Source: Vicinamibacterales bacterium (GTDB taxonomy: Bacteria > Acidobacteriota > Vicinamibacteria > Vicinamibacterales > 2-12-FULL-66-21). From it: a DNA stretch of 64,000 nt. The notes under the pieces are model-generated. The model ran no database searches and was not told the origin of the DNA. It saw only the letters and a program-made list of their open reading frames with translations. Below are positions 1 to 10,604 of this stretch, one piece after another. Position numbers and translations under genes: made by a program. The stretch lies in assembly GCA_035250005.1 (NCBI GenBank), contig DATFFM010000106.1:9723-73722 (forward strand), read 5' to 3'. The number at the start of each line of letters is the position of its first letter. The first letter of the stretch is position 1.

Positions 1-1532
1 CGCATCCGTCCGCCGGGAACATCGGCGGCGGTGGCTTCATGATCGTCCGGACACCGGATGGCCAGGTCACCAGCTTCGACTTTCGCGAGCGGGCGCCGTT
101 GAAATCGACCCGTACCATGTACCTCGGCAAGGACGGCGAGATCGCGCGCGACCTCACCGAGGCCGGTTACCTGGCTCCCGGCGTGCCCGGTTCCGTCCGC
201 GGCATGGCGATGGCGCACGCCAAGTTCGGCAAGCTGCCGTGGAAGGACGTCGTGATGCCAGGTGTGCTGGTCGCCGAGCAGGGATTCGTGATCTCAGCGG
301 CCCTCGCGCGAGGATTGAACCGCGAGGTGAAAGGGCCGATGGCGGAATTCCCGGCTTCGGTGGCGGCCTATGGCAAGCCCGGCGGGGGCGACTGGACGGC
401 CGGCGACCGGCTGGTCCTGAAGGATCTCGGCAGGACGCTGCGCTCGATCGCGACCGACGGGCCCGACGCGTTCTACACCGGCTGGATCGCCGACGCCATC
501 GCCGAAGACATGAAGGCGAATGGCGGCCTGATCACGAAGGAGGACCTTGCGAAGTACGCGGCCAAAGAGCGCGCGCCCGTGCGGGGTACCTACAAGGGCT
601 TCGAGATCGTCTCGATGCCGCCGGTCAGCTCCGGCGGCGTGGCGCTGATCGAGATGCTGAACATCCTCGAGCCGCTGAACCTGAAATCGAAAGGGCTGCT
701 CACCGCCGACGCGCTTCACCTCCAGATCGAAGCCATGCGCCGCGCGTACCTCGACCGCGCTCGGCATCTCGGGGATCCCGACTTCGTGAAGATCCCGGTC
801 GACACTCTGATCTCGAAGGAGCATGCGCGCAAGGTCGCGGCCTCGATCGATCCGGCCAAAGCCTCGAGCAGCGTCGCGCTCGGCAAGGACATCGTGACGG
901 TGACGACCGACCAGGAGCCCGACGAGACGACTCACTACTCGGTCATCGATCGCAACGGCATGGCGGTGACGACCACGACGACGCTCGAGGGCGGTTACGG
1001 CTCGCACGTGGTGGTGAAGGGCACGGGGTTCCTGTTGAACAACGAAATGGGTGACTTCAACAAGAAGCCGGGGGAGACGAACGTTCGTGGCGACATCGGC
1101 ACGCCGGCAAACCTGATCGATCCGGGCAAGCGCATGCTCAGCTCGATGACCCCGACGATGGTGCTGAAAGATAGCAAGGTGGTGATGCTCACCGGATCGC
1201 CTGGCGGCCGCACGATCATCAACACCGTGTTCACCATCGTCTTCGGCGTGGTCGAGTACGGCTTGAACGGCCGGCAGGCGGTGGACCTGGCGCGCATGCA
1301 TCACCAGTGGCTGCCCGATCGCGTCTCGATCGAGAAGGAGAGCGGCCCGGGCGAAGAGGTGCTGTCGAAGCTGAAGGCGATGGGCCACGATATCAGGACC
1401 GGCGGGCGGCAGGGGGACGCGCACTCCATCTGGGTCGCGCCCGACGGTTCGGTCTACGGAATCAACGAGAAGCGGACCCCGGATGGCAAGGCCTCGGTGC
1501 CCCAGTTGACTTCGTCGGCCGCGGGGCGGTAG
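1..1532 (+). CDS. ggt: gamma-glutamyltransferase, 5' end cut by window edge
   Basis: The frame of ORF 39..1532 stays open back to base 3 (HPSAGNIGGGGFMIVRT is the GGT Gly-rich motif). Autoprocessing/nucleophile Thr context DETTHYSVIDRNGMAVTTTTTLEGGYGS. Confidence 0.9.
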   Translation, partial: HPSAGNIGGGGFMIVRTPDGQVTSFDFRERAPLKSTRTMYLGKDGEIARDLTEAGYLAPGVPGSVRGMAMAHAKFGKLPWKDVVMPGVLVAEQGFVISAALARGLNREVKGPMAEFPASVAAYGKPGGGDWTAGDRLVLKDLGRTLRSIATDGPDAFYTGWIADAIAEDMKANGGLITKEDLAKYAAKERAPVRGTYKGFEIVSMPPVSSGGVALIEMLNILEPLNLKSKGLLTADALHLQIEAMRRAYLDRARHLGDPDFVKIPVDTLISKEHARKVAASIDPAKASSSVALGKDIVTVTTDQEPDETTHYSVIDRNGMAVTTTTTLEGGYGSHVVVKGTGFLLNNEMGDFNKKPGETNVRGDIGTPANLIDPGKRMLSSMTPTMVLKDSKVVMLTGSPGGRTIINTVFTIVFGVVEYGLNGRQAVDLARMHHQWLPDRVSIEKESGPGEEVLSKLKAMGHDIRTGGRQGDAHSIWVAPDGSVYGINEKRTPDGKASVPQLTSSAAGR

Positions 1533-1535
1533 GCT
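1506..1535 (+). promoter_or_regulatory. candidate sigma70-type promoter for the his leader (TTGACT - 18 nt - TAGGCT)
   Basis: TTGACT 1506-1511 and TAGGCT 1530-1535 (overlaps the ggt stop). The predicted start is a few nt before leader ATG 1547, which has no Shine-Dalgarno. Hand-matched only. Confidence 0.3.
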
Positions 1536-1546
1536 TGCCTGCGTTC

Positions 1547-1627
1547 ATGTTTCAGTCTCTGCACCATCACCGGCACCACCATCACTCCTGCTCCGGCGGG
1601 CCGGTATCCGTGCGCTTCATGAACTGA
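1547..1627 (+). CDS. his operon leader peptide, 26 aa (MFQSLHHHRHHHHSCSGGPVSVRFMN), hisL-like
   Basis: Codons 6-13 are CAC CAT CAC CGG CAC CAC CAT CAC (7 His in 8 codons). It lies between the ggt stop and hisI and is followed by a terminator/antiterminator. Confidence 0.75.
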   Translation: MFQSLHHHRHHHHSCSGGPVSVRFMN

Positions 1628-1652
1628 TCCTTTAGAAACGCGCACTCATTCG

Positions 1653-1690
1653 AGGCCCTGCTGGAGAACATCCGGCAGGGCCTTTTGCTT
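1653..1690 (+). terminator. intrinsic terminator of the his attenuator
   Basis: 13-bp stem AGGCCCTGCTGGA (1653-1665) / TCCGGCAGGGCCT (1671-1683) with one G-U pair, loop GAACA, then TTTTGCTT. It ends 10 nt before hisI ATG 1700. Alternative pairing of 1592-1602 with 1654-1665 is possible. Confidence 0.75.
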
Positions 1691-1699
1691 GTACGAACC

Positions 1700-2011
1700 A
1701 TGGATTTCACGAAACTCGACGGACTCATCCCCGCTGTGATCCAGGACGACGCCTCGGGCGAGGTCCTGATGGTCGGCTTCATGAACGAGGAGGCGCTGAC
1801 GCTCACCCAGGCGTCCGGATACGCGACCTTCTTCAGCCGCACGCGCCAGACGCTGTGGATGAAGGGGGAAACCTCCGGCAACCGGCTGAAAGTGAGGGCG
1901 ATGCTCGTGGACTGCGACGAGGACACGCTCCTGCTCAAGGTCGTATGCGAAGGGAGCGGCGCGGCCTGCCACACCGGGGCACGGTCGTGCTTTCGCAGTG
2001 CTGAAAGGTGA
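1700..2011 (+). CDS. hisI: phosphoribosyl-AMP cyclohydrolase (monofunctional, no HisE domain)
   Basis: [16 protein letters not shown]..., [21 protein letters not shown]...[15 protein letters not shown] 1700 preferred over track TTG 1685, which lies inside the terminator T-tract. Confidence 0.9.
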
Positions 2012-2906
2012 AGAGGTGAACAAAATCAAGCTGGGCTTGCCGAAGGGGTCCCTGCAGGACGCGACGATTCAGCTGTTCGCGCGGGCGGGGTTCAACATCT
2101 ACGCGAGCACGCGGTCGTACTTTCCGGCAATCGACGATCCGTCGATCGACTGCATGCTGATCCGGGCACAGGAGATGGCGCGGTACGTCGCCGACGGCGT
2201 GCTCGATGCGGGGCTCACGGGCCAGGACTGGATCGCCGAGCATGCGGCGGCCCGGGGCGGATGTTCCGGCGTGGAGCCGCTGGCCGATCTCATTTACGCG
2301 AAACAAAGCTTCGGCAAGGTGCGGTGGGTGCTCGCCGTGCCTGAAGACTCACGCTATCGGAGCGTGAAGGACCTCGAGGGAGCCACCGTGGCCACCGAGC
2401 TCGTGCGCGCGACCCAGGCGTACTTCACTCGCCAGAACGTCAAGGTGAACGTCGAGTTCTCCTGGGGCGCAACGGAAGTGAAGCCGCCCGTCCTCGCGGA
2501 CGCCATCGTCGAGGTCACCGAGACGGGATCCTCTCTGCGCGCCAACCGGCTCCGCGTCATCGAGACGGTGCTCGAATCGAACACCCAGCTCATCGCCAAC
2601 CCCGCGTCGCTTGGCGACGAGTGGAAGCGCACCAAGCTGGAGAACATCGCGCTGCTGCTGCGGGCCGCCATGGAGGCGCAGGGGCGGGTCGGGATCATGC
2701 TCAACGTGAAGCGGTCCGACCTCGACGCGGTGCTGTCGCTGCTGCCCGCGCTGCAGCGCCCGACGATCTCTCCCCTCGCCGACAACGACTGGGTCGCGCT
2801 GAACACGATCATCGAGGAGCGCACGGTCCGGGACCTCATTCCGCGCCTGAAGGCCGCCCAGGCCCAGGGCATCGTCGAGTATCCGCTGAACAAGATCGTG
2901 CTGTGA
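1998..2906 (+). CDS. hisG: ATP phosphoribosyltransferase, long form
   Basis: [49 protein letters not shown]-terminal regulatory domain present. Alternative start GTG 2016 with AAAGG 7 nt upstream. Confidence 0.9.
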
Positions 2907-3216
2907 TGATGCCGACTTTCAACTACCTGAGGCAACCAGCGCCGCGTGACGGCGAGACACCTCCTCGCCGCGCGGCGCGGCGGAGCCACGTCAGGGCCAC
3001 GGCGCGATGCGGCCAGCGCGCTGCGACAGGTCCGACAAACCGACCGCAGGCGGTCCCATCGGCGGAGGCGCAGGTATCGTCCCAGGCGCCCCGGATCGCC
3101 CGGATGCCCAGGCGAGCCCTTACCGGCCTGCGGAAAGCCCGGGCCGGAGGCGCATCGTGAGCCGCGCGCCGGAGGACGGTTTTTCCGCGTCCAGGCCGAG
3201 ACGCCGTCGACCCGGC

Positions 3217-4509
3217 GTGGCCCCGACGCAACACGCGCGGACCGGATCCAGCCTCGCGCTCAAACTGACGCCAATCCGGGTCTGGGAATCGAAGGATTCC
3301 GGCATCGTCGATCGACTGATCGCCGGGCCGGCGCGCCGGAACTCCAGGATCGAGGCGCGCGTGCGGCGGATCGTCGCCGACGTCCGGGAACGCGGCGACA
3401 CGGCGCTCATGGAGTATGCGCGCCAGCTCGATGGTCTGACCGGACCGGTGGAGATCACGCGCACGGAAATACGACGGGCGGCGCGCACCGTGCCGGCGGA
3501 TGTCGGTGACGCGATCCGGCTGGCGGCACGAAACATCCGCACCGTCGCGCGCAAGCAGGTGCCGACGGGATGGAGAGTATCGACGGTTCCGGGTGTGCGC
3601 ATCGAGCAGCGCGTCACGCCGCTCGAGCGTGTCGGCTGCTACGTGCCGGGTGGGCGTTATCCCCTGCCCTCTTCGCTGCTGATGACGGCCATCCCGGCGC
3701 GAGTCGCGGGTGTCCGGGAGATCATTGCGGTCTGTCCGAGACCGGATGCGACGGTGCTCTTCGCGGCGGGCGTGGCGGGGGTCGATCGGTTGTTCCGTAT
3801 CGGTGGCGCGCACGCGGTCGCGGCGCTGGCTTGCGGCACACGGACGGTTCCGCGTGTTGACAAGATCGTCGGTCCCGGGAACGCCTACGTCGCTGCCGCG
3901 AAAGCGCTCGTGTCACGCGAGTGCGCGATCGACTTCTTCGCCGGTCCGAGCGAGATCGTCGTCGTCTCGGCCAGCGGCAATCCGGGCTGGATCGCCGCCG
4001 ATCTCATCGCGCAGGCCGAGCACGACCCCGATGCCCGCGCGATCCTGCTGACGCCGTCCCGGCGGCTGGCCGAGGCGGTCGCGGGTGAATGCGACCGGCT
4101 GCTGCCGGGTGACGGAACGGCCCGTGACGCGCTCGCTCGAAACGGCGGGATCGTCGTGACGCGAAGCATCGCGGAAGCGATTGCGCTGTCGCAGCAGATG
4201 GCCCCCGAGCACGTGGTGTGCGACGACGAAGCGGTGGCGGCGCGGCTGACGGCGGCTGGAACCGTCTTCGTCGGCAGCTGGAGCGCGCAGGCTTTGGGGG
4301 ATTACGTCACCGGCTCCAACCACGTGCTGCCGACCGGCGGCGCCGCCCGCGCGCGCGGCGGGCTCGGCGCAGTCGACTTCGTCCGCGTGTCGAACGTGCA
4401 GCGCATATCGTCGCGCGGCGTCCGGCGTATCGGTGACGCGGCGGTCACGCTGGCGCAGGCGGAGGGGCTCACGGCCCATGCCGCCTCGATCCGCGTCCGA
4501 TTCTCATGA
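3217..4509 (+). CDS. hisD: histidinol dehydrogenase (start uncertain)
   Basis: VGCYVPGGRYPLPSSLLMTAIPARVAG, AQAEHDPDA, NHVLPTGGAARARGGL. Track ATG 3007 adds a 70-aa Arg/Pro-rich extension with no HisD counterpart. In-frame GTG 3217 gives ~430 aa. Confidence 0.85.
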   Translation: MAPTQHARTGSSLALKLTPIRVWESKDSGIVDRLIAGPARRNSRIEARVRRIVADVRERGDTALMEYARQLDGLTGPVEITRTEIRRAARTVPADVGDAIRLAARNIRTVARKQVPTGWRVSTVPGVRIEQRVTPLERVGCYVPGGRYPLPSSLLMTAIPARVAGVREIIAVCPRPDATVLFAAGVAGVDRLFRIGGAHAVAALACGTRTVPRVDKIVGPGNAYVAAAKALVSRECAIDFFAGPSEIVVVSASGNPGWIAADLIAQAEHDPDARAILLTPSRRLAEAVAGECDRLLPGDGTARDALARNGGIVVTRSIAEAIALSQQMAPEHVVCDDEAVAARLTAAGTVFVGSWSAQALGDYVTGSNHVLPTGGAARARGGLGAVDFVRVSNVQRISSRGVRRIGDAAVTLAQAEGLTAHAASIRVRFS

Positions 4510-5573
4510 AGCTGTCGAAACAGATGAATTACGAGTACGAGAAAGTCGTCACCCCTTCGTCGGGCCTGCGCCTGCACCTGAACGAGAACACCGCCGGATG
4601 CTCGCCGGCCGTGCTCGACGCGATTCGCGGGATCACGTGTGAGACGGCGGCATTCTACCCGGACTATGCGGACGCGATCGCCGCCTGCTGCGAGCATCTC
4701 GAGGTGCCTGCGTCCAGTCTCCTGCTGACCAACGGCCTCGACGAAGGGATCCTCGCCGCCAGCGTCGCCGCGTTGCGGGGCAGCCCCGCCGCCGACCCGT
4801 TCGAGGCCATCGTCATCGTGCCGGCGTTCGACATGTACGCCGCCTGCGCGGATGCGGCCGGGGGCCGGGTGATCGAGATCCCACAGGGAGATGATTTCGA
4901 GTTCCCGCTCGACGCGGTGCTCGCCGCGGTCGGCCCGCGTACCCGCATCGTCTTCATCACCACTCCCAACAACCCGACCGGGATCACGGTTCCCCGGAGC
5001 AGCATCCTGGCGATCGCCGCCGCCGCGCCAGGATCGCTGATCTTCGTCGACGAGGCGTACGTGGACTTCAGCGGCGTGACGCTCGTCGGCGATCCTTCGA
5101 TGGAAACACACTCGAACCTCGTGGTCGGACGCACATTCGCGAAAGCGTACGGCCTGGCTGCCATACGTGCGGGGGCGCTCATCGGCTCGCCGGAGACGCT
5201 TGCGCCGATCCGCCGCGTCGTGCCGCCCTACAGCCTCAACGTCGCGGCCGCGGTGGCGATCCCGGCTGCGCTTCGCGACCGCGAGCGCTACGACTGGTAC
5301 CTCGGCGAGGTACGGCGGTCGAAACGGCTGCTCTACGACGCTTTCGACCGGCTCGATGTCCGGTACTGGCCGAGCGACGGCAACTTCGTTCTCGTGCGTT
5401 TCGGCGAGATGTCGGGCCGCGTCGTGAGCGTGCTGGCGGAGCGCGGGATCTACCTCCGCGACCGCTCGAAGGACCACGGCTGCAGCGGCTGTGTTCGGAT
5501 CACCGCCGGGGTCGCCGAACACACGCGCCGGTGCATCGACGCGATCGAGGAGGTCCTGTGCGACGCGCGCTGA
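4506..5573 (+). CDS. hisC: histidinol-phosphate aminotransferase
   Basis: [18 protein letters not shown]-Lys context [19 protein letters not shown] overlap with the hisD stop. Confidence 0.9.
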
Positions 5574-6145
5574 TCGACCGGCACACCAGCGAGACGCAGA
5601 TCCGGCTGAAGTTGAATCTCGACGGGCACGGCCGATACGAGATCGCGACCGGCATCCGGTTTCTCGACCACATGCTGGAGCTCCTCGCCCGGCATGGCGC
5701 GTTCGATCTCTCGGTCGCCGCATCCGGCGATCTGGATGTCGATCAGCACCACACCGTCGAGGATCTCGGTATCGCGCTCGGCGAGGCGGTCTCGGCGGCG
5801 CTCGGGGGCCGCCGCGGCATCAATCGTGCGGGCTACTTCGTCATGCCGATGGACGAAACGCTGGCCGTCGCGGCGATCGACCTCGGCGGCAGAGCGCACG
5901 CCGTGGTCGACCTGCGGTTGCGTGTCAAGCGGGTGGGTGATCTCGACGCAGAGCTGGTCAACGACTTCTTCGACGGTTTCGCGCAGGGAGCCCGCGCCAA
6001 CGTCCACCTGAAGGTTCTCTATGGACGATCCAGCCATCATCACGTCGAAGCGTGCTTCAAGGCCTTCGCCAGGGCCCTTCGGGTCGCCTGCGCGAAGGAC
6101 AAGCGGATGGCGAGAATGCTGCCGTCGACGAAGGGGCTCATTTAG
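5558..6145 (+). CDS. hisB: imidazoleglycerol-phosphate dehydratase (monofunctional)
   Basis: [65 protein letters not shown] 5558 is preceded by GAGGAGG and overlaps the hisC end. Confidence 0.9.
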
Positions 6146-6187
6146 CAGGGATGCCGTCGCCCGTCGGGCGGCGATGTGGGGCACAGA

Positions 6188-6793
6188 ATGCGGATTGCGC
6201 TGATCGATTACGGTGCCGGGAATCTCACGTCGGTTCTCAAGGGCTTCAGAGCCGCGGGGGACGAGCCCGGAATACCGGGCGCGCCTGCCGACCTTGCCGG
6301 TTGCGCCGGAATCGTCGTGCCCGGCGTCGGCCACTTCGCGGCGACGTCGTCCATCGCCGACGCCTGGCGCGCGGCGATCACCCGGCGGGTCGAAGCGGGC
6401 GTGCCGTTCCTGGGGATCTGCCTGGGCATGCAGTGGCTCTTCGAGGGCAGCGAAGAAGCGCCCGGCATGGCGGGGCTCGGTCTGCTGGCCGGACGATGTG
6501 CGCGGATCGAGGCGGAGCGGCCATTGAAGGTGCCGCACGTCGGATGGAACGCGCTGGACGTGCGGCGGCACAGCCCGATTCTCGACGCGATCGAGGACGG
6601 CACCCAGGTGTACTTCACGCACTCGTTCGCGGGGCCAGTAACCCCCGAGTGTTGCGCATCCACCACCCACGGGCAGGCTTTTGCCGCCGTCGTCCAGCGC
6701 GACAACGTTGCCGGCGTTCAGTTCCACCCGGAGAAGTCGGGGGCCGCGGGCCTCCGCATCCTTCGCAACTTTCTGGCGATGACCAGGAGCTGA
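6188..6793 (+). CDS. hisH: imidazole glycerol phosphate synthase, glutamine amidotransferase subunit
   Basis: [13 protein letters not shown], nucleophile Cys in GICLGMQ, HVGWN, FHPEKSG. Confidence 0.9.
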
Positions 6794-6794
6794 C

Positions 6795-7565
6795 GTGCTG
6801 TCGAAGCGGATCATCGCGTGCCTCGACGTTCGCGACGGCTCGGTGGTCAAGGGGGTGAACTTCGAAGACCTGCGCAACGCCGGCGATCCGGCGGCGCTCG
6901 CCCGGCGGTACAACGCCGAAGGCATCGACGAGCTGGTGATCCTCGACGTCACGGCCACGATCGAGGCGCGCCGGGCGATCGCGGCAACGATCCGGGCGGT
7001 CTCGAGCGAGCTGTTCATCCCGCTGGCCGTCGGTGGAGGGATTCGCACTGGAGCGGACGCCGCAGCCGTTATCGAGGCGGGCGCCGACAAGGTGAGCCTG
7101 AATACGGCTGCCCTGGCAGACCCTGCCCTGATTACGAGCCTCGCGGAGTTATACGGCAGCCAGGCGGTGATCGTCGCAATCGACGCGAAGCGCGATGGGG
7201 ATCGCTGGATCGTCTTCACGCGCAGCGGCCGCGACGGGACCACCCGCGAGGCTGGCGAGTGGGCGCGTGAAGCGGAGCACCGCGGTGCCGGGGAAATCCT
7301 CCTGACCTCGATCGACCGTGACGGGACCCGCACCGGATTCGACTGCGAGCTGACCGCGCTGGTGGCTGGCGCAGTATCCATCCCGGTCATCGCGTCAGGC
7401 GGGGCCGGGACCTTCGAACACTTTCACGACGTCTTCACGCTGGGCCAGGCCGACGCCGCGCTCGCCGCCTCGGTGTTTCACTACTCGGAACACGCCGTCG
7501 CCGAGCTCAAGAGCTACCTCGCGCAGCGTGGACTCCCGATCAGATCATGCTCGTCCCCTCCATAG
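6795..7565 (+). CDS. hisF: imidazole glycerol phosphate synthase, cyclase subunit
   Basis: [44 protein letters not shown] start preceded by CAGGAG. Confidence 0.9.
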
Positions 7566-8221
7566 ATCTTCAAGGCGGCCGCATCGTGCAGCTCGTCCAG
7601 GGGGAGACGCTGGCCGTCGAGAGCAGCGAGATCGACCTGTGGGTCGGAAGGTTCCGCGGCCGTTCGAAGATCCAGCTGATCGACCTCGATGCGGCAAAGG
7701 GTCAGGGCGACAACCGCGCGCTGGTCGAGCGGATCTGCGCCGAGCTCCCGTGCCGCGTCGGCGGCGGCGTCCGGTCGATCGAGCGTGCGCACCGGTTGCT
7801 CGACCGCGGCGCAACACACGTCATCGTCGGCTCGGCGCTGTTTGCCGGCGGAAAGATCGACCTGCCGTTCGCACGGGCGCTGTCGGAGGCGGCGGGCGCC
7901 GGCCGGCTGATCGCCGCCGTTGACAGTCGAGGCGGCAGGGTCGTCATCCACGGCTGGCGAACGCAGCTCGAGATCACGCCAGCGGACGCCGTCCGCCAGC
8001 TGGAACCGTACTTCGGCGAGTTTCTCTACACGCACGTGGACAGCGAGGGGCTCATGCGCGGCACCGACATGGCCGCGATCCGCGCGGTTCGGGACGCGAC
8101 CTCCCGGCCGCTCACGGCTGCCGGAGGGATCACCACAGCCGAAGAAGTCGCGGCCCTCGACGCGCTGGGAGTGGATGCGGTCGTCGGGATGGCAATCTAC
8201 ACCGGGCGGATCGAATACTGA
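7547..8221 (+). CDS. hisA: ProFAR isomerase (HisA)
   Basis: [19 protein letters not shown], (beta/alpha)8 HisA/HisF-like, GGGVRS, AAGGIT. 19-nt overlap with the hisF end. Confidence 0.8.
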
Positions 8222-8245
8222 GGGTCCGGGGGTCCGGGGGTCGGC
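8222..8245. repeat. 3 x 8-nt tandem repeat GGGTCCGG GGGTCCGG GGGTCGGC
   Basis: Read directly. Starts at the base after the hisA stop. GGGTCC is the reverse complement of the GGACCC core of the array at 20102-20155. Confidence 0.8.
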
Positions 8246-8279
8246 ATTCCACGGTTCGCTGTGGTGTAGGCTGAGGCCG

Positions 8280-10604
8280 ATGCCTCATCGTTTCGCGGGT
8301 CTCGCCTTCCTTCTGGCCATCACGGCATTCACGGGCTGTTCACGAAGCACGGGTTCCTTCTCGGAGCGGAACGCGCGGGCCCACGTCGAGGTGCTGGCGG
8401 GCACGATCGGCAGCCGGCCGTCGGGGACGGAGGCGCACGCAAAGGCGCGCGCCTACGTCATCGACCAGCTGAAGATCTTTGGCTACCAGGTGCGGGTGCA
8501 GGAGGCCGACGCGCGGCGGCCCGAGCTCGGACGCAGCGCCCGTGTCGCCAACATCATCGGGATCCTGCCCGGGCCGCGGCGCGAAGCGATCGGCCTGCTG
8601 TCCCATTACGACTCCCGGGGCGATACACCGGGGGCGGGCGACGATGCCTTTGGCGTGGCGGTGTCGCTCGAGGCGGCGCGCCTGATTGCCGCATCGAGTG
8701 CGCGCCAGTGGACGACATACGTGCTGGTCACCGACGCCGAAGAAGAAGGACTGATGGGCGCGGCGGCGCTCATGAACGACCCCGAGGTCAGGGACCACCT
8801 CTCCGCCTACATCAACATCGAGTCGACCGGGTCGGGCGGGCCCGTGATGCTGTTCGAGACCGGGCCCGGCAACGAGTGGCTGGTCGATCGCTGGGCACGG
8901 CGGGCGCCGCGGCCGCGCGGTGGTTCGTTCGCCCTCGAGATCTACAAGCGGCTGCCGAACGACACCGATTTCTCGATCATGAAGCAGCACGGGGTGCCGG
9001 GCCTGAACTTCGCGGCCGTCGGTGACAGCTACACGTACCATACCGCCCGCGACACACCCGACCGGCTCTCGCCGCGCGCCCTGAGCGAAACCGGCGACAA
9101 CGTCGTCGCCATCGTCGAGGCGCTTCAAGGCACCGACATCACGGCGAGAACGACGGCGGACGCCACCTATTTCGACATCTCCGGCACGGCGGGCGTCAGC
9201 TACGGCACGCTGGGCGCGTGGGCCACGTCGGTGCTCGCGCTGATTCTCGGGGCCCTCGGCTGGCTGCGGGTGACGCGGTTCCTGCTGCACGAGGAAGGGT
9301 TCGGGCGGTGGCTGCTCGGGCTCGTCTGGATGATCATTGCGGTAGCCGTGACGGCAGCCGCCATGGTCGGCGCCGCCGCCGCGCTTCGAGCCGCGCGCGA
9401 GGTGTACCACCCCTGGTACGCGCGGCCGGACCGTTTGTTCCTGATGGTCGCGGCGGTCGGCGGGGCGGTCGGGTGGATGATGGCGCGGGCGGGCCGATGG
9501 ATCCCCGTGCGCGCGCGCGGCCTGCGGCATCCTGCCATCGCCTGGACGTATACGCTGCCGGTGTGGATCGCGCTGGCCCTGTTCGTCTTCTGGGCCGCAC
9601 CGGCGGCTGCCTACCTCTGGACGTGGCCGCTGCTGACCGCGGGCCTGCTTCTGCTGCTGGTGCCGGCGTCCAATGCCGGTGCGGTTCGAATCGCCTCGGT
9701 CGTCATTCTTGCGGTCGCGGCGACGCTCTGGCTCCGCGATATGGTGGAGCTGCTTCGTTTCATGGTGGCGGTCTTCGGGCGGCTGCCCATCGTCACGCCG
9801 GTTTATGTGTATCCGGCGCTGATCGCGGGCGCCGGCCTGATGGTCGCGCCGCCGCTGTTCGCCGCCACGGTCAGGCCGCTGCCGCTCCTGCGCCCGTCGC
9901 TCGCCACCGCCCTGGCGCTGGCGGGTGTGGCGGCAACGATGCTCGCAGCCTGGCTGGCGCCGGCCTACACGCCGGAGCAGCCCCTGCGCCGGTACGTCCG
10001 CGCCATCCAGGAGCCGGGTACCCCGACCTCGCTCTGGAAGGTCGGATCCCTCGAGCCGGGGCTCGACCTGGGTGAAGGGGCGCCGCAGGGATGGAACACG
10101 ACGGAACCGTCGGTTCAGAGCATTCCCTGGGGATCGCTGGCGCAACCGTTCGTCTTCTCGACGACGAGCGCGCCGCTGCCGGCGGCGCCGGCATCTGTGA
10201 CCGGCTACGCCACGGCACCGGCTGCGGACGGCGCGGGCACGACGCTGTCGGTCTCGGTGATCCCGAAGGAGCCGTCGCTGGCCGTCTCGTTCGTGCTGCC
10301 GGCCGGGGTCGTTCCCGCGCGGAGCAATTTCCCCGGCGTCATTCGCCTCGGCCGATGGACGGCCACCTTCTACGCGCCGCCGCCCGAGGGGATCGCCTGG
10401 CAGGCGACGTTCGCCTCGGTCACGCCGGAGCAGCTGAAAGCCGTCCGCGTGGCGGTCACGTCGAGCGGCCTGCCGGGAGCCCCCGGCTGGCAGCGCCTCC
10501 CGGCCTGGCTGCCGCAGGAACGGGCGGTGTGGAACGGCTGGTTCACCTGGGTCCTGGATCCGTCCGCGCCGCCGCCGATTGAACCGGTCCCCCCGTTACG
10601 TTAA
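8280..10604 (+). CDS. M28-family metallopeptidase fused to a multi-pass membrane domain, lipoprotein-type signal
   Basis: Start ATG 8280 (LAFLLAITAFTGC lipobox). M28 motifs HYDSRGDTPGAGDDAFGV, DAEEEGLMGA, NIESTGSGGP. About nine hydrophobic segments follow, then a C-terminal soluble tail. The upstream part of track ORF 7920.. overlaps hisA and is discarded. Confidence 0.8.
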   Translation: MPHRFAGLAFLLAITAFTGCSRSTGSFSERNARAHVEVLAGTIGSRPSGTEAHAKARAYVIDQLKIFGYQVRVQEADARRPELGRSARVANIIGILPGPRREAIGLLSHYDSRGDTPGAGDDAFGVAVSLEAARLIAASSARQWTTYVLVTDAEEEGLMGAAALMNDPEVRDHLSAYINIESTGSGGPVMLFETGPGNEWLVDRWARRAPRPRGGSFALEIYKRLPNDTDFSIMKQHGVPGLNFAAVGDSYTYHTARDTPDRLSPRALSETGDNVVAIVEALQGTDITARTTADATYFDISGTAGVSYGTLGAWATSVLALILGALGWLRVTRFLLHEEGFGRWLLGLVWMIIAVAVTAAAMVGAAAALRAAREVYHPWYARPDRLFLMVAAVGGAVGWMMARAGRWIPVRARGLRHPAIAWTYTLPVWIALALFVFWAAPAAAYLWTWPLLTAGLLLLLVPASNAGAVRIASVVILAVAATLWLRDMVELLRFMVAVFGRLPIVTPVYVYPALIAGAGLMVAPPLFAATVRPLPLLRPSLATALALAGVAATMLAAWLAPAYTPEQPLRRYVRAIQEPGTPTSLWKVGSLEPGLDLGEGAPQGWNTTEPSVQSIPWGSLAQPFVFSTTSAPLPAAPASVTGYATAPAADGAGTTLSVSVIPKEPSLAVSFVLPAGVVPARSNFPGVIRLGRWTATFYAPPPEGIAWQATFASVTPEQLKAVRVAVTSSGLPGAPGWQRLPAWLPQERAVWNGWFTWVLDPSAPPPIEPVPPLR

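Follow-up and report, generated by a model that had tools for sequence, protein, structure and literature searches.

The leader peptide of the Escherichia coli his operon (hisL) is 16 amino acids long and contains seven consecutive histidines. The hisL attenuator of E. coli and Salmonella (summarized in PMC9413887) combines this short His-run open reading frame (ORF) with a terminator and an antiterminator that are mutually exclusive and with a helix that involves the His codons, all placed before the his operon; stalling of the leader ribosome leads to read-through. An element that shares these features, and is predicted to share the stalling-to-read-through logic, lies between ggt and hisI in a 64,000-nucleotide (nt) stretch of DNA (the window) from a Vicinamibacterales bacterium of the phylum Acidobacteriota (contig DATFFM010000106.1, positions 9,723 to 73,722). 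We read it as a ribosome-mediated (leader-peptide) transcription attenuator that sets his-operon expression by charged tRNA-His, with a probability of roughly 0.85, on the basis of its sequence elements, its alternative helices, and their conservation and covariation. It has the features of the attenuator class: a leader ORF of cognate codons, a terminator before the first structural gene, and a mutually exclusive antiterminator, one strand of which is placed where a translating ribosome would gate it. A preliminary description of the window had already proposed this reading, which is now supported by the conserved leader, terminator and in-ORF antiterminator, by compensatory changes and by constrained folds.

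The differences from hisL are also clear. The acidobacterial leader has 26 amino acids and an interrupted run, HHHRHHHH; it has no Shine-Dalgarno (SD) sequence and a predicted 5' untranslated region (UTR) of 0-5 nt; its layout is a simple series of helices formed by four regions (1:2, 2:3 and 3:4) with one inner hairpin, as against the A:B/C:D/E:F layout of hisL; the first gene is hisI rather than hisG; and the phylum is Acidobacteriota. The preliminary description saw the full enterobacterial logic in this locus. The functional logic is indeed reproduced by folds and conservation, but family matches are absent: Rfam RF00514 (His_leader) has no match in positions 1300-2000 at E up to 10, and Pfam and NCBIfam, also at E up to 10, have none for the leader peptide of the window or for two Terriglobia leaders. 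As judged from its sequence and predicted structure, the element is not a homologue of enterobacterial hisL. Searched at the Rfam gathering score, the whole window yields no family, neither T-box nor riboswitch; matches to ncS01 and P17 in positions 1300-2000 (E up to 10) were dismissed as chance hairpins.

His leader attenuators have been described or predicted in Gammaproteobacteria, the Bacillus cereus group, Peptostreptococcaceae and Erysipelotrichales (PMC9413887, PMC2965389), and also for Lactococcus lysQ; predictions in Actinobacteria are cited in PMC4833913. The view that they are documented mainly in Gammaproteobacteria, held in the preliminary description, leaves out these Firmicutes lineages and Actinobacteria, and what is new here is the phylum, not a first case beyond the gamma class. 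A literature search that covered few subscription-journal surveys found no His leader reported for Acidobacteria, and an earlier mention is possible. The Firmicutes leaders (those of the B. cereus group hisZ/hisS paralogues, Peptostreptococcaceae and Erysipelotrichales; PMC9413887, PMC2965389) resemble the acidobacterial ones in being lineage-specific, RF00514-negative comparative-genomics finds with a terminator and an antiterminator. They differ in their 3-5 consecutive His codons, low GC content and first genes (hisZ or hisS), and they are reported for few lineages (PMC9413887), whereas almost all of the acidobacterial loci sampled carry a member of the acidobacterial family.

Two other systems bear comparison. 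The E. coli trp attenuator has the same four-segment architecture, with two Trp codons in place of seven His. The leaderless polycysteine short ORFs (sORFs) of mycobacteria (Canestrari et al., 10.1101/834739) share a sensory ORF placed at the extreme 5' end of the transcript, in which codons for the amino acid of the controlled pathway are repeated, and a leaderless or near-leaderless start (predicted here from promoter spacing); they differ in acting on translation, by unmasking a downstream ribosome-binding site, whereas the acidobacterial element has a hairpin followed by a U-tract.

Architecture and predicted switching

The elements of the leader RNA in the window are as follows.

1547-1627, + strand: leader-peptide ORF read from the sequence, 26 codons and TGA (1625-1627), without Shine-Dalgarno sequence; product MFQSLHHHRHHHHSCSGGPVSVRFMN
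1562-1585, + strand: regulatory codon run, codons 6-13 (CAC CAT CAC CGG CAC CAC CAT CAC), seven His and one CGG (Arg)
1561-1580, + strand: region 1, which overlaps the His codons and forms the 5' strand of the anti-antiterminator ('protector') helix; partner in the minimum free energy (MFE) fold, 1595-1613
1591-1605, + strand: region 2, the antiterminator strand; 1591-1602 (CTCCGGCGGGCC) is a near copy of the terminator 3' arm, and 1595-1605 pairs with region 1
1610-1645, + strand: inner hairpin enclosed by the antiterminator (1610-1623 with 1631-1645), holding the leader stop 1625-1627; from constrained folds, window z score -2.0
1652-1666, + strand: region 3, the terminator 5' arm (1652-1665 in the terminator, 1654-1666 in the antiterminator)
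1671-1684, + strand: region 4, the terminator 3' arm; loop GAACA at 1666-1670, 14-bp stem with 9 G-C pairs
1683-1690, + strand: U-tract of the intrinsic terminator, TTTTGCTT, from the sequence and a terminator scan

All of the coordinates in the preliminary description (ggt stop, ATG 1547, His codons, hairpin arms, complementary segments and promoter hexamers) are borne out by the sequence, in which TCCGGCGGGCC occupies 1592-1602, ACCGGC 1569-1574 and GCCGGT 1600-1605. Two of its helices need adjustment. The arms and GAACA loop of the hairpin that it placed at 1653-1665/1671-1683 are present, but the stem given by the fold and the terminator scan has 14 bp rather than 13, spanning 1652-1684; its antiterminator does pair with the terminator 5' arm with one bulge, over 12 bp instead of 11.

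The 161-nt segment 1540-1700, whose folding the preliminary description had proposed as a check, folds at -62 kcal/mol, compared with -45.1 +/- 3.7 for dinucleotide shuffles (z = -4.5; 0/200 as good), and the terminator, antiterminator and protector forms are all found in it. The helix 3:4 terminator duplex is worth -29.8 kcal/mol. The helix 2:3 antiterminator (1591-1602 with 1654-1666) comes to -25.2 kcal/mol (z -3.8, 0/200 shuffles), and the 1:2 duplex (1561-1580 with 1595-1613), in which the His codons pair with region 2 as had been proposed, to -24.8 kcal/mol (also z -3.8). Constrained folds reproduce the 1:2/2:3/3:4 logic. When the transcript is cut at 1668-1670, short of region 4, and a ribosome masks the His run, the antiterminator is the MFE structure (-34.6 kcal/mol); with a ribosome placed on the stop codon, helix 1:2 re-forms and 2:3 is absent; with no ribosome, 1:2 is the first helix to form, being present when the transcript ends at 1650 or 1660, and the MFE structure of the full-length RNA is 1:2 plus the terminator.

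The sequence of events that we infer runs from the start site through leaderless initiation and ribosome stalling to the efficiency of termination and the response to histidine. Transcription would start at a promoter in the end of ggt, a few nt before AUG 1547, and translation of the 26-codon leader would begin with a 5' UTR that is minimal or absent. Under a shortage of His-tRNA, the ribosome would stall on codons 6-13 and cover region 1: by standard footprint sizes, a ribosome with one of codons 6-11 in its A site should reach to ~1575-1590, leaving region 2 free. Region 2 (1591-1602) could then pair with region 3 (1654-1666) once the latter is made, and this antiterminator would withhold the 5' arm of the terminator and let RNA polymerase proceed into hisI. 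When His-tRNA is plentiful, the ribosome would pass over region 2 to the stop codon, melting the inner hairpin; region 2 would be recaptured by region 1 behind the ribosome (in most relatives the ribosome that terminates would mask it instead), regions 3 and 4 would form the terminator, and transcription would stop at ~1690. Were the leader not translated at all, helices 1:2 and 3:4 should both form and termination ensue.

Conservation of the leader and terminator

One scan of one-genome-per-species contigs, with the HisI of the window as query, gave 80 loci from as many genomes (L001-L080), mostly labelled Acidobacteriota. The closest HisI loci belong to Vicinamibacterales/Vicinamibacteraceae (up to 77% identity), and the next to Terriglobia (Acidobacteriaceae, Bryobacterales). 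Loosely defined, as a short His-rich ORF that ends 70-190 nt before hisI, a leader is found in 70 of the 78 testable loci. Under a strict definition (5 or more His among 8 codons, no further than 250 nt 5' of hisI), a run is present on the hisI strand of 66/76 loci and on the opposite strand of none (0/76), and in 3/3382 (0.09%) control windows from the same loci. A leader, a hairpin and a T-tract occur together in 71 loci as well as in the window. The family medians are a leader of 25 amino acids with seven His, the first at codon 6. Leaders of the form MF...HHHRHHH...GGP, homologous to that of the window, are found in L012, L013, L015, L017 and L031; degenerate leaders (3-4 His) are followed by terminators in L026, L049 and L052. 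Four loci (L060, L063, L074 and L075) have no leader at all, and their labels are non-acidobacterial (Microsaccharimonas, Bacteroidota, Thermodesulfobacteriota, Peribacteria). The arrangement of His leader, terminator and antiterminator is not a product of chance.

Taxonomic labels at odds with content were noted in several records of metagenome-assembled genomes (MAGs). The records L004, L010 and L027, labelled Bifidobacteriaceae, contain a HisI 66-73% identical to that of the window and a full acidobacterial leader.

The terminator bears on how the signal is put out. A leader ORF that senses histidine might act mainly on translation or through Rho, with mRNA structure or polarity controlling hisI in the manner of the mycobacterial leaderless Cys sORFs, whose action on translation is documented (10.1101/834739); the weak U-tract of the window would suit such an output, as would the end of its hairpin just 15 nt before an SD-less hisI start. 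In the relatives, however, U-tracts, mostly of 5-9 U, directly follow the hairpin, and a strong hairpin (at or below -20 kcal/mol) with a T-tract is found in 85% of loci as against 8.7% of control windows. The distance from hairpin to hisI ranges, moreover, from 8 to 147 nt (median 52), so that occlusion of the hisI start could not be general. A mainly translational or Rho-dependent output is on these grounds improbable, and transcription attenuation at an intrinsic terminator is preferred.

Covariation of the alternative helices

In most loci, the segment most complementary to the terminator 5' arm lies inside the leader ORF: the median distance is 8 nt from the last His codon to the start of this antiterminator strand, and 11 nt from its end to the stop. 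Compared with dinucleotide shuffles, the antiterminator duplex has a median z of -2.4, with z < -2 in 61% of loci, and the cognate combination of antiterminator strand and terminator arm pairs better than random re-pairings in 5000/5000 trials. In a MAFFT alignment of 28 sequences of the Vicinamibacterales group (A1), pairing reaches 87% in the terminator helix, where 8 pairs show compensatory changes, and 65% in the antiterminator helix, for which sliding the partner gives at most 48%; for both helices the covariation score is reached by 0/500 shuffles. Three-way compensation is seen in L028, where GTGTCGGCGG goes with CCGCCGACA and TCGGCGGG, and in L040, where GTGTCAGCGG goes with CCGCTGACA and TCAGCGGG. 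RNAalifold, run unaided on the MAFFT alignment, returns the terminator only; the antiterminator was tested by naming its structure and by per-locus duplexes. The inner hairpin (1610-1645) was rejected as a conserved feature of the family (median z -0.7, not significant).

A lack of conservation of the His run or of the alternative helices in relatives had been named in advance as refuting the attenuator reading. The ggt-hisI spacer, set beside its counterparts as the preliminary description had suggested, has its His run, its terminator and its in-ORF antiterminator strand kept in ~72 acidobacterial his loci with differing upstream genes, and the helices of the terminator and antiterminator carry compensatory changes. 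The protector helix fares unevenly: it is strong in the window and weakly supported as a general feature.

These constraints also tell on the peptide. His-rich peptides are able to bind metals. The short ORF might accordingly encode a functional His-rich product, a metal-binding one for example, its place before the his genes being incidental or serving another purpose; that C-terminal parts such as VTSVSAD and GTSMPADC are kept within clades could be taken in the same sense. But at the RNA level the conserved C-terminal codons make up the antiterminator strand, GTGTCGGCGGA, whose complementarity to the terminator arm is kept by covariation, and this is why motifs such as VTSVSAD are conserved; beyond the His run the peptide is entirely different between orders; the ORF is always coupled to a terminator and a his operon; and it belongs to no Pfam or NCBIfam family. 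A peptide that functions in its own right is thus very unlikely, and the ORF is better understood as the sensor of an attenuator.

In L001-L080 the His runs are nearly always broken by a single GC-rich codon, for Arg (56 occurrences), Ala (35) or Gly (35). Within the run of Vicinamibacterales leaders (A1 columns ~96-105), CAC-GCG-CAY (or GTG) has its complement in a conserved UGCGCGUG that lies shortly before the leader stop. The pattern of these sequences suggests that the interrupting codon may be kept for the anti-antiterminator helix.

The predicted promoter and initiation of leader translation

The predicted promoter of the leader consists of two hexamers.

1506-1511, + strand: -35 hexamer TTGACT, inside the 3' end of ggt, conserved in relatives
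1530-1535, + strand: -10 hexamer TAGGCT, after an 18-nt spacer; includes the ggt stop TAG and lies 11 nt before the leader ATG

The predicted his promoter thus overlaps the last part of the upstream gene, with its -35 element in coding sequence and its -10 element over the stop codon; L012, L013, L015 and L017 were noted for the same arrangement. A sigma-70 consensus scanner finds no promoter in the window, TAGGCT fitting at 3/6 positions, and the promoter was recovered through conservation only: its GGTAGGCT/GATAGGCT recurs in L012, L013, L015 and L017, and TTGACA (with at most one mismatch)-N16-19-TAnnnT lies just 5' of the leader start in 51/64 loci (47 with exact TTGACA), compared with 9/5292 control windows; the prevailing form is TTGACA-N17/18-TAnnnT. 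The preliminary description had offered TTGACT-18-TAGGCT as a candidate, and had taken the leader to be SD-less and nearly leaderless; conservation supports the first proposal, and the predicted start-site geometry favours the second. Between the end of the -10 hexamer and the leader start codon lie 9-10 nt in 33 of the 51 promoter-bearing loci and 11 nt in the window, and an SD-like 4-mer precedes that codon in 9/64 loci only. This fixed spacing from promoter to AUG, together with the lack of an SD sequence, predicts a leader 5' UTR of ~0-5 nt and therefore leaderless or nearly leaderless translation of the sensor ORF, which is the most distinctive feature that the comparison predicts. For comparison, 9.7-19.4% of genes are predicted to be leaderless in three acidobacterial genomes (PMC3160421).

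The neighbours of the element show to which transcription unit it belongs. The gene upstream is ggt in only 4/80 loci (L012, L015, L017 and L031), whereas hisG lies 3' of hisI in 78/80; the element therefore belongs to the his operon. The notion that the hairpin is instead the intrinsic terminator of ggt (it is on the same strand, 120 nt past the ggt stop) and the His-rich ORF a chance frame, of the kind that abounds in GC-rich DNA, is hardly credible: it is rejected by this synteny, since 71 loci keep the leader and terminator whatever lies upstream, by the conserved promoter between the upstream gene and the leader, by the hairpin ending so close to the hisI ATG as to leave hisI without a promoter of its own, and by the rarity of His runs in control windows (0.09%) and on the opposite strand.

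Points that weigh against attenuation

Several findings count against the attenuator as formulated, or against parts of it. For full-length RNA with a stalled ribosome, the terminator conformer is ~11 kcal/mol more stable than the antiterminator (-45.7 vs. -34.6), so that the decision between them must be kinetic, as it likewise is in classical attenuators. The U-tract of the window is short and weak (UUUUGCUU; 4 U, then GCUU), and so is its -10 hexamer, TAGGCT. In most of the relatives, region 2 ends ~11 nt before the leader stop and would be masked by the terminating ribosome, as in the established trpL model; in the window it ends 21 nt before the stop codon, beyond the masking reach of that ribosome, and repression there therefore relies on the 1:2 helix, which probably does the job of masking region 2. 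Across the family that same helix is weak (median z -1.3; z < -2 in 32% of loci). Frame defects occur in two leaders: in L031 (2847-2924), the leader closest to that of the window, the only ATG is in a different frame from the His run, and the HHHH leader of L053 (2725-3006) is in a frame without a stop before hisI; these may be MAG or assembly indel errors, or the leaders may be genuinely decaying. The MAFFT alignment of leaders as variable as these is, finally, imperfect.

Distribution and origin

The comparison of loci supports conservation of a putative histidine attenuator and its promoter in no fewer than two acidobacterial classes, in Vicinamibacterales and Terriglobia. More tentatively, at odds a little short of even, the acidobacterial element may be independent in origin from enterobacterial hisL and ancestral to at least Vicinamibacteria and Terriglobia, with a leaderless or near-leaderless sensor ORF and a GC-rich interrupting codon (Arg, Ala or Gly) that is kept for anti-antiterminator pairing. 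If true, leaderless ribosome loading would be combined here with a classical intrinsic-terminator switch. The predicted attenuator offers a test case for the coupling of near-leaderless translation to transcription termination; it extends leader-peptide attenuation to another phylum by unrelated sequence, which bears on whether such sensors evolve repeatedly.

Acidobacteriota are abundant in soil. In a 2010 survey, nearly all of the attenuators predicted in Acidobacteria were without assigned function (PMC2965389). The mechanism proposed here is itself textbook; what the element offers is a gain for annotation and regulatory biology in a phylum that has been little studied, and material for the question of independent origins. 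A concrete regulatory element whose predicted signal, charged tRNA-His, is clear can be assigned to almost all of the acidobacterial loci sampled; leader ORFs that match nothing in the Rfam, Pfam and NCBIfam libraries searched can be annotated; and a conserved promoter consensus with its start-site geometry is supplied for acidobacteria.

The his operon and its surroundings

The genes that the attenuator is predicted to control are these.

1700-2011, + strand: hisI, monofunctional PRA-CH of 103 amino acids, start ATG 1700, first gene of the operon (Pfam PF01502, 4.8e-31)
1700-8221, + strand: his operon, hisI-hisG-hisD-hisC-hisB-hisH-hisA-hisF, eight genes assigned by Pfam

Pfam thus bears out the eight-gene his operon of the preliminary description, and also the upstream gene: ggt, whose stop TAG is at 1530-1532, is identified as a gamma-glutamyltranspeptidase. 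Relatives align to the HisI N-terminus, MDFTKLDG, from residue 1. In the window hisI has no Shine-Dalgarno sequence, and an SD-like 4-mer precedes hisI in 23/64 loci. HisI is monofunctional, and no hisE is seen among the eight genes of the operon. HisZ is not expected, because hisG is of the long form with a HisG_C domain.

A tRNA scan of the window found no tRNA, and a six-frame scan of the window for runs of other amino-acid codons in short ORFs found none resembling another attenuator. From the hisG stop (2906) to GTG 3217, the earliest plausible start of hisD, the interval is unusually long, ~310 nt (2907-3216) at 73.5% GC; it may hold an N-terminal extension, a small gene or an RNA element, and it has no significant BLAST similarity to the corresponding spacers of relatives or to the rest of the window. 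A 500-amino acid ORF begins at ATG 3007, and its match to the Histidinol_dh profile begins only at residue 110. Among relatives the hisG-hisD spacing is 0 to ~350 nt. The end of the his operon is marked by a long ORF for an M28-family peptidase (PF04389), which as listed (7920-10604) overlaps hisF at its 3' end but probably starts further downstream.

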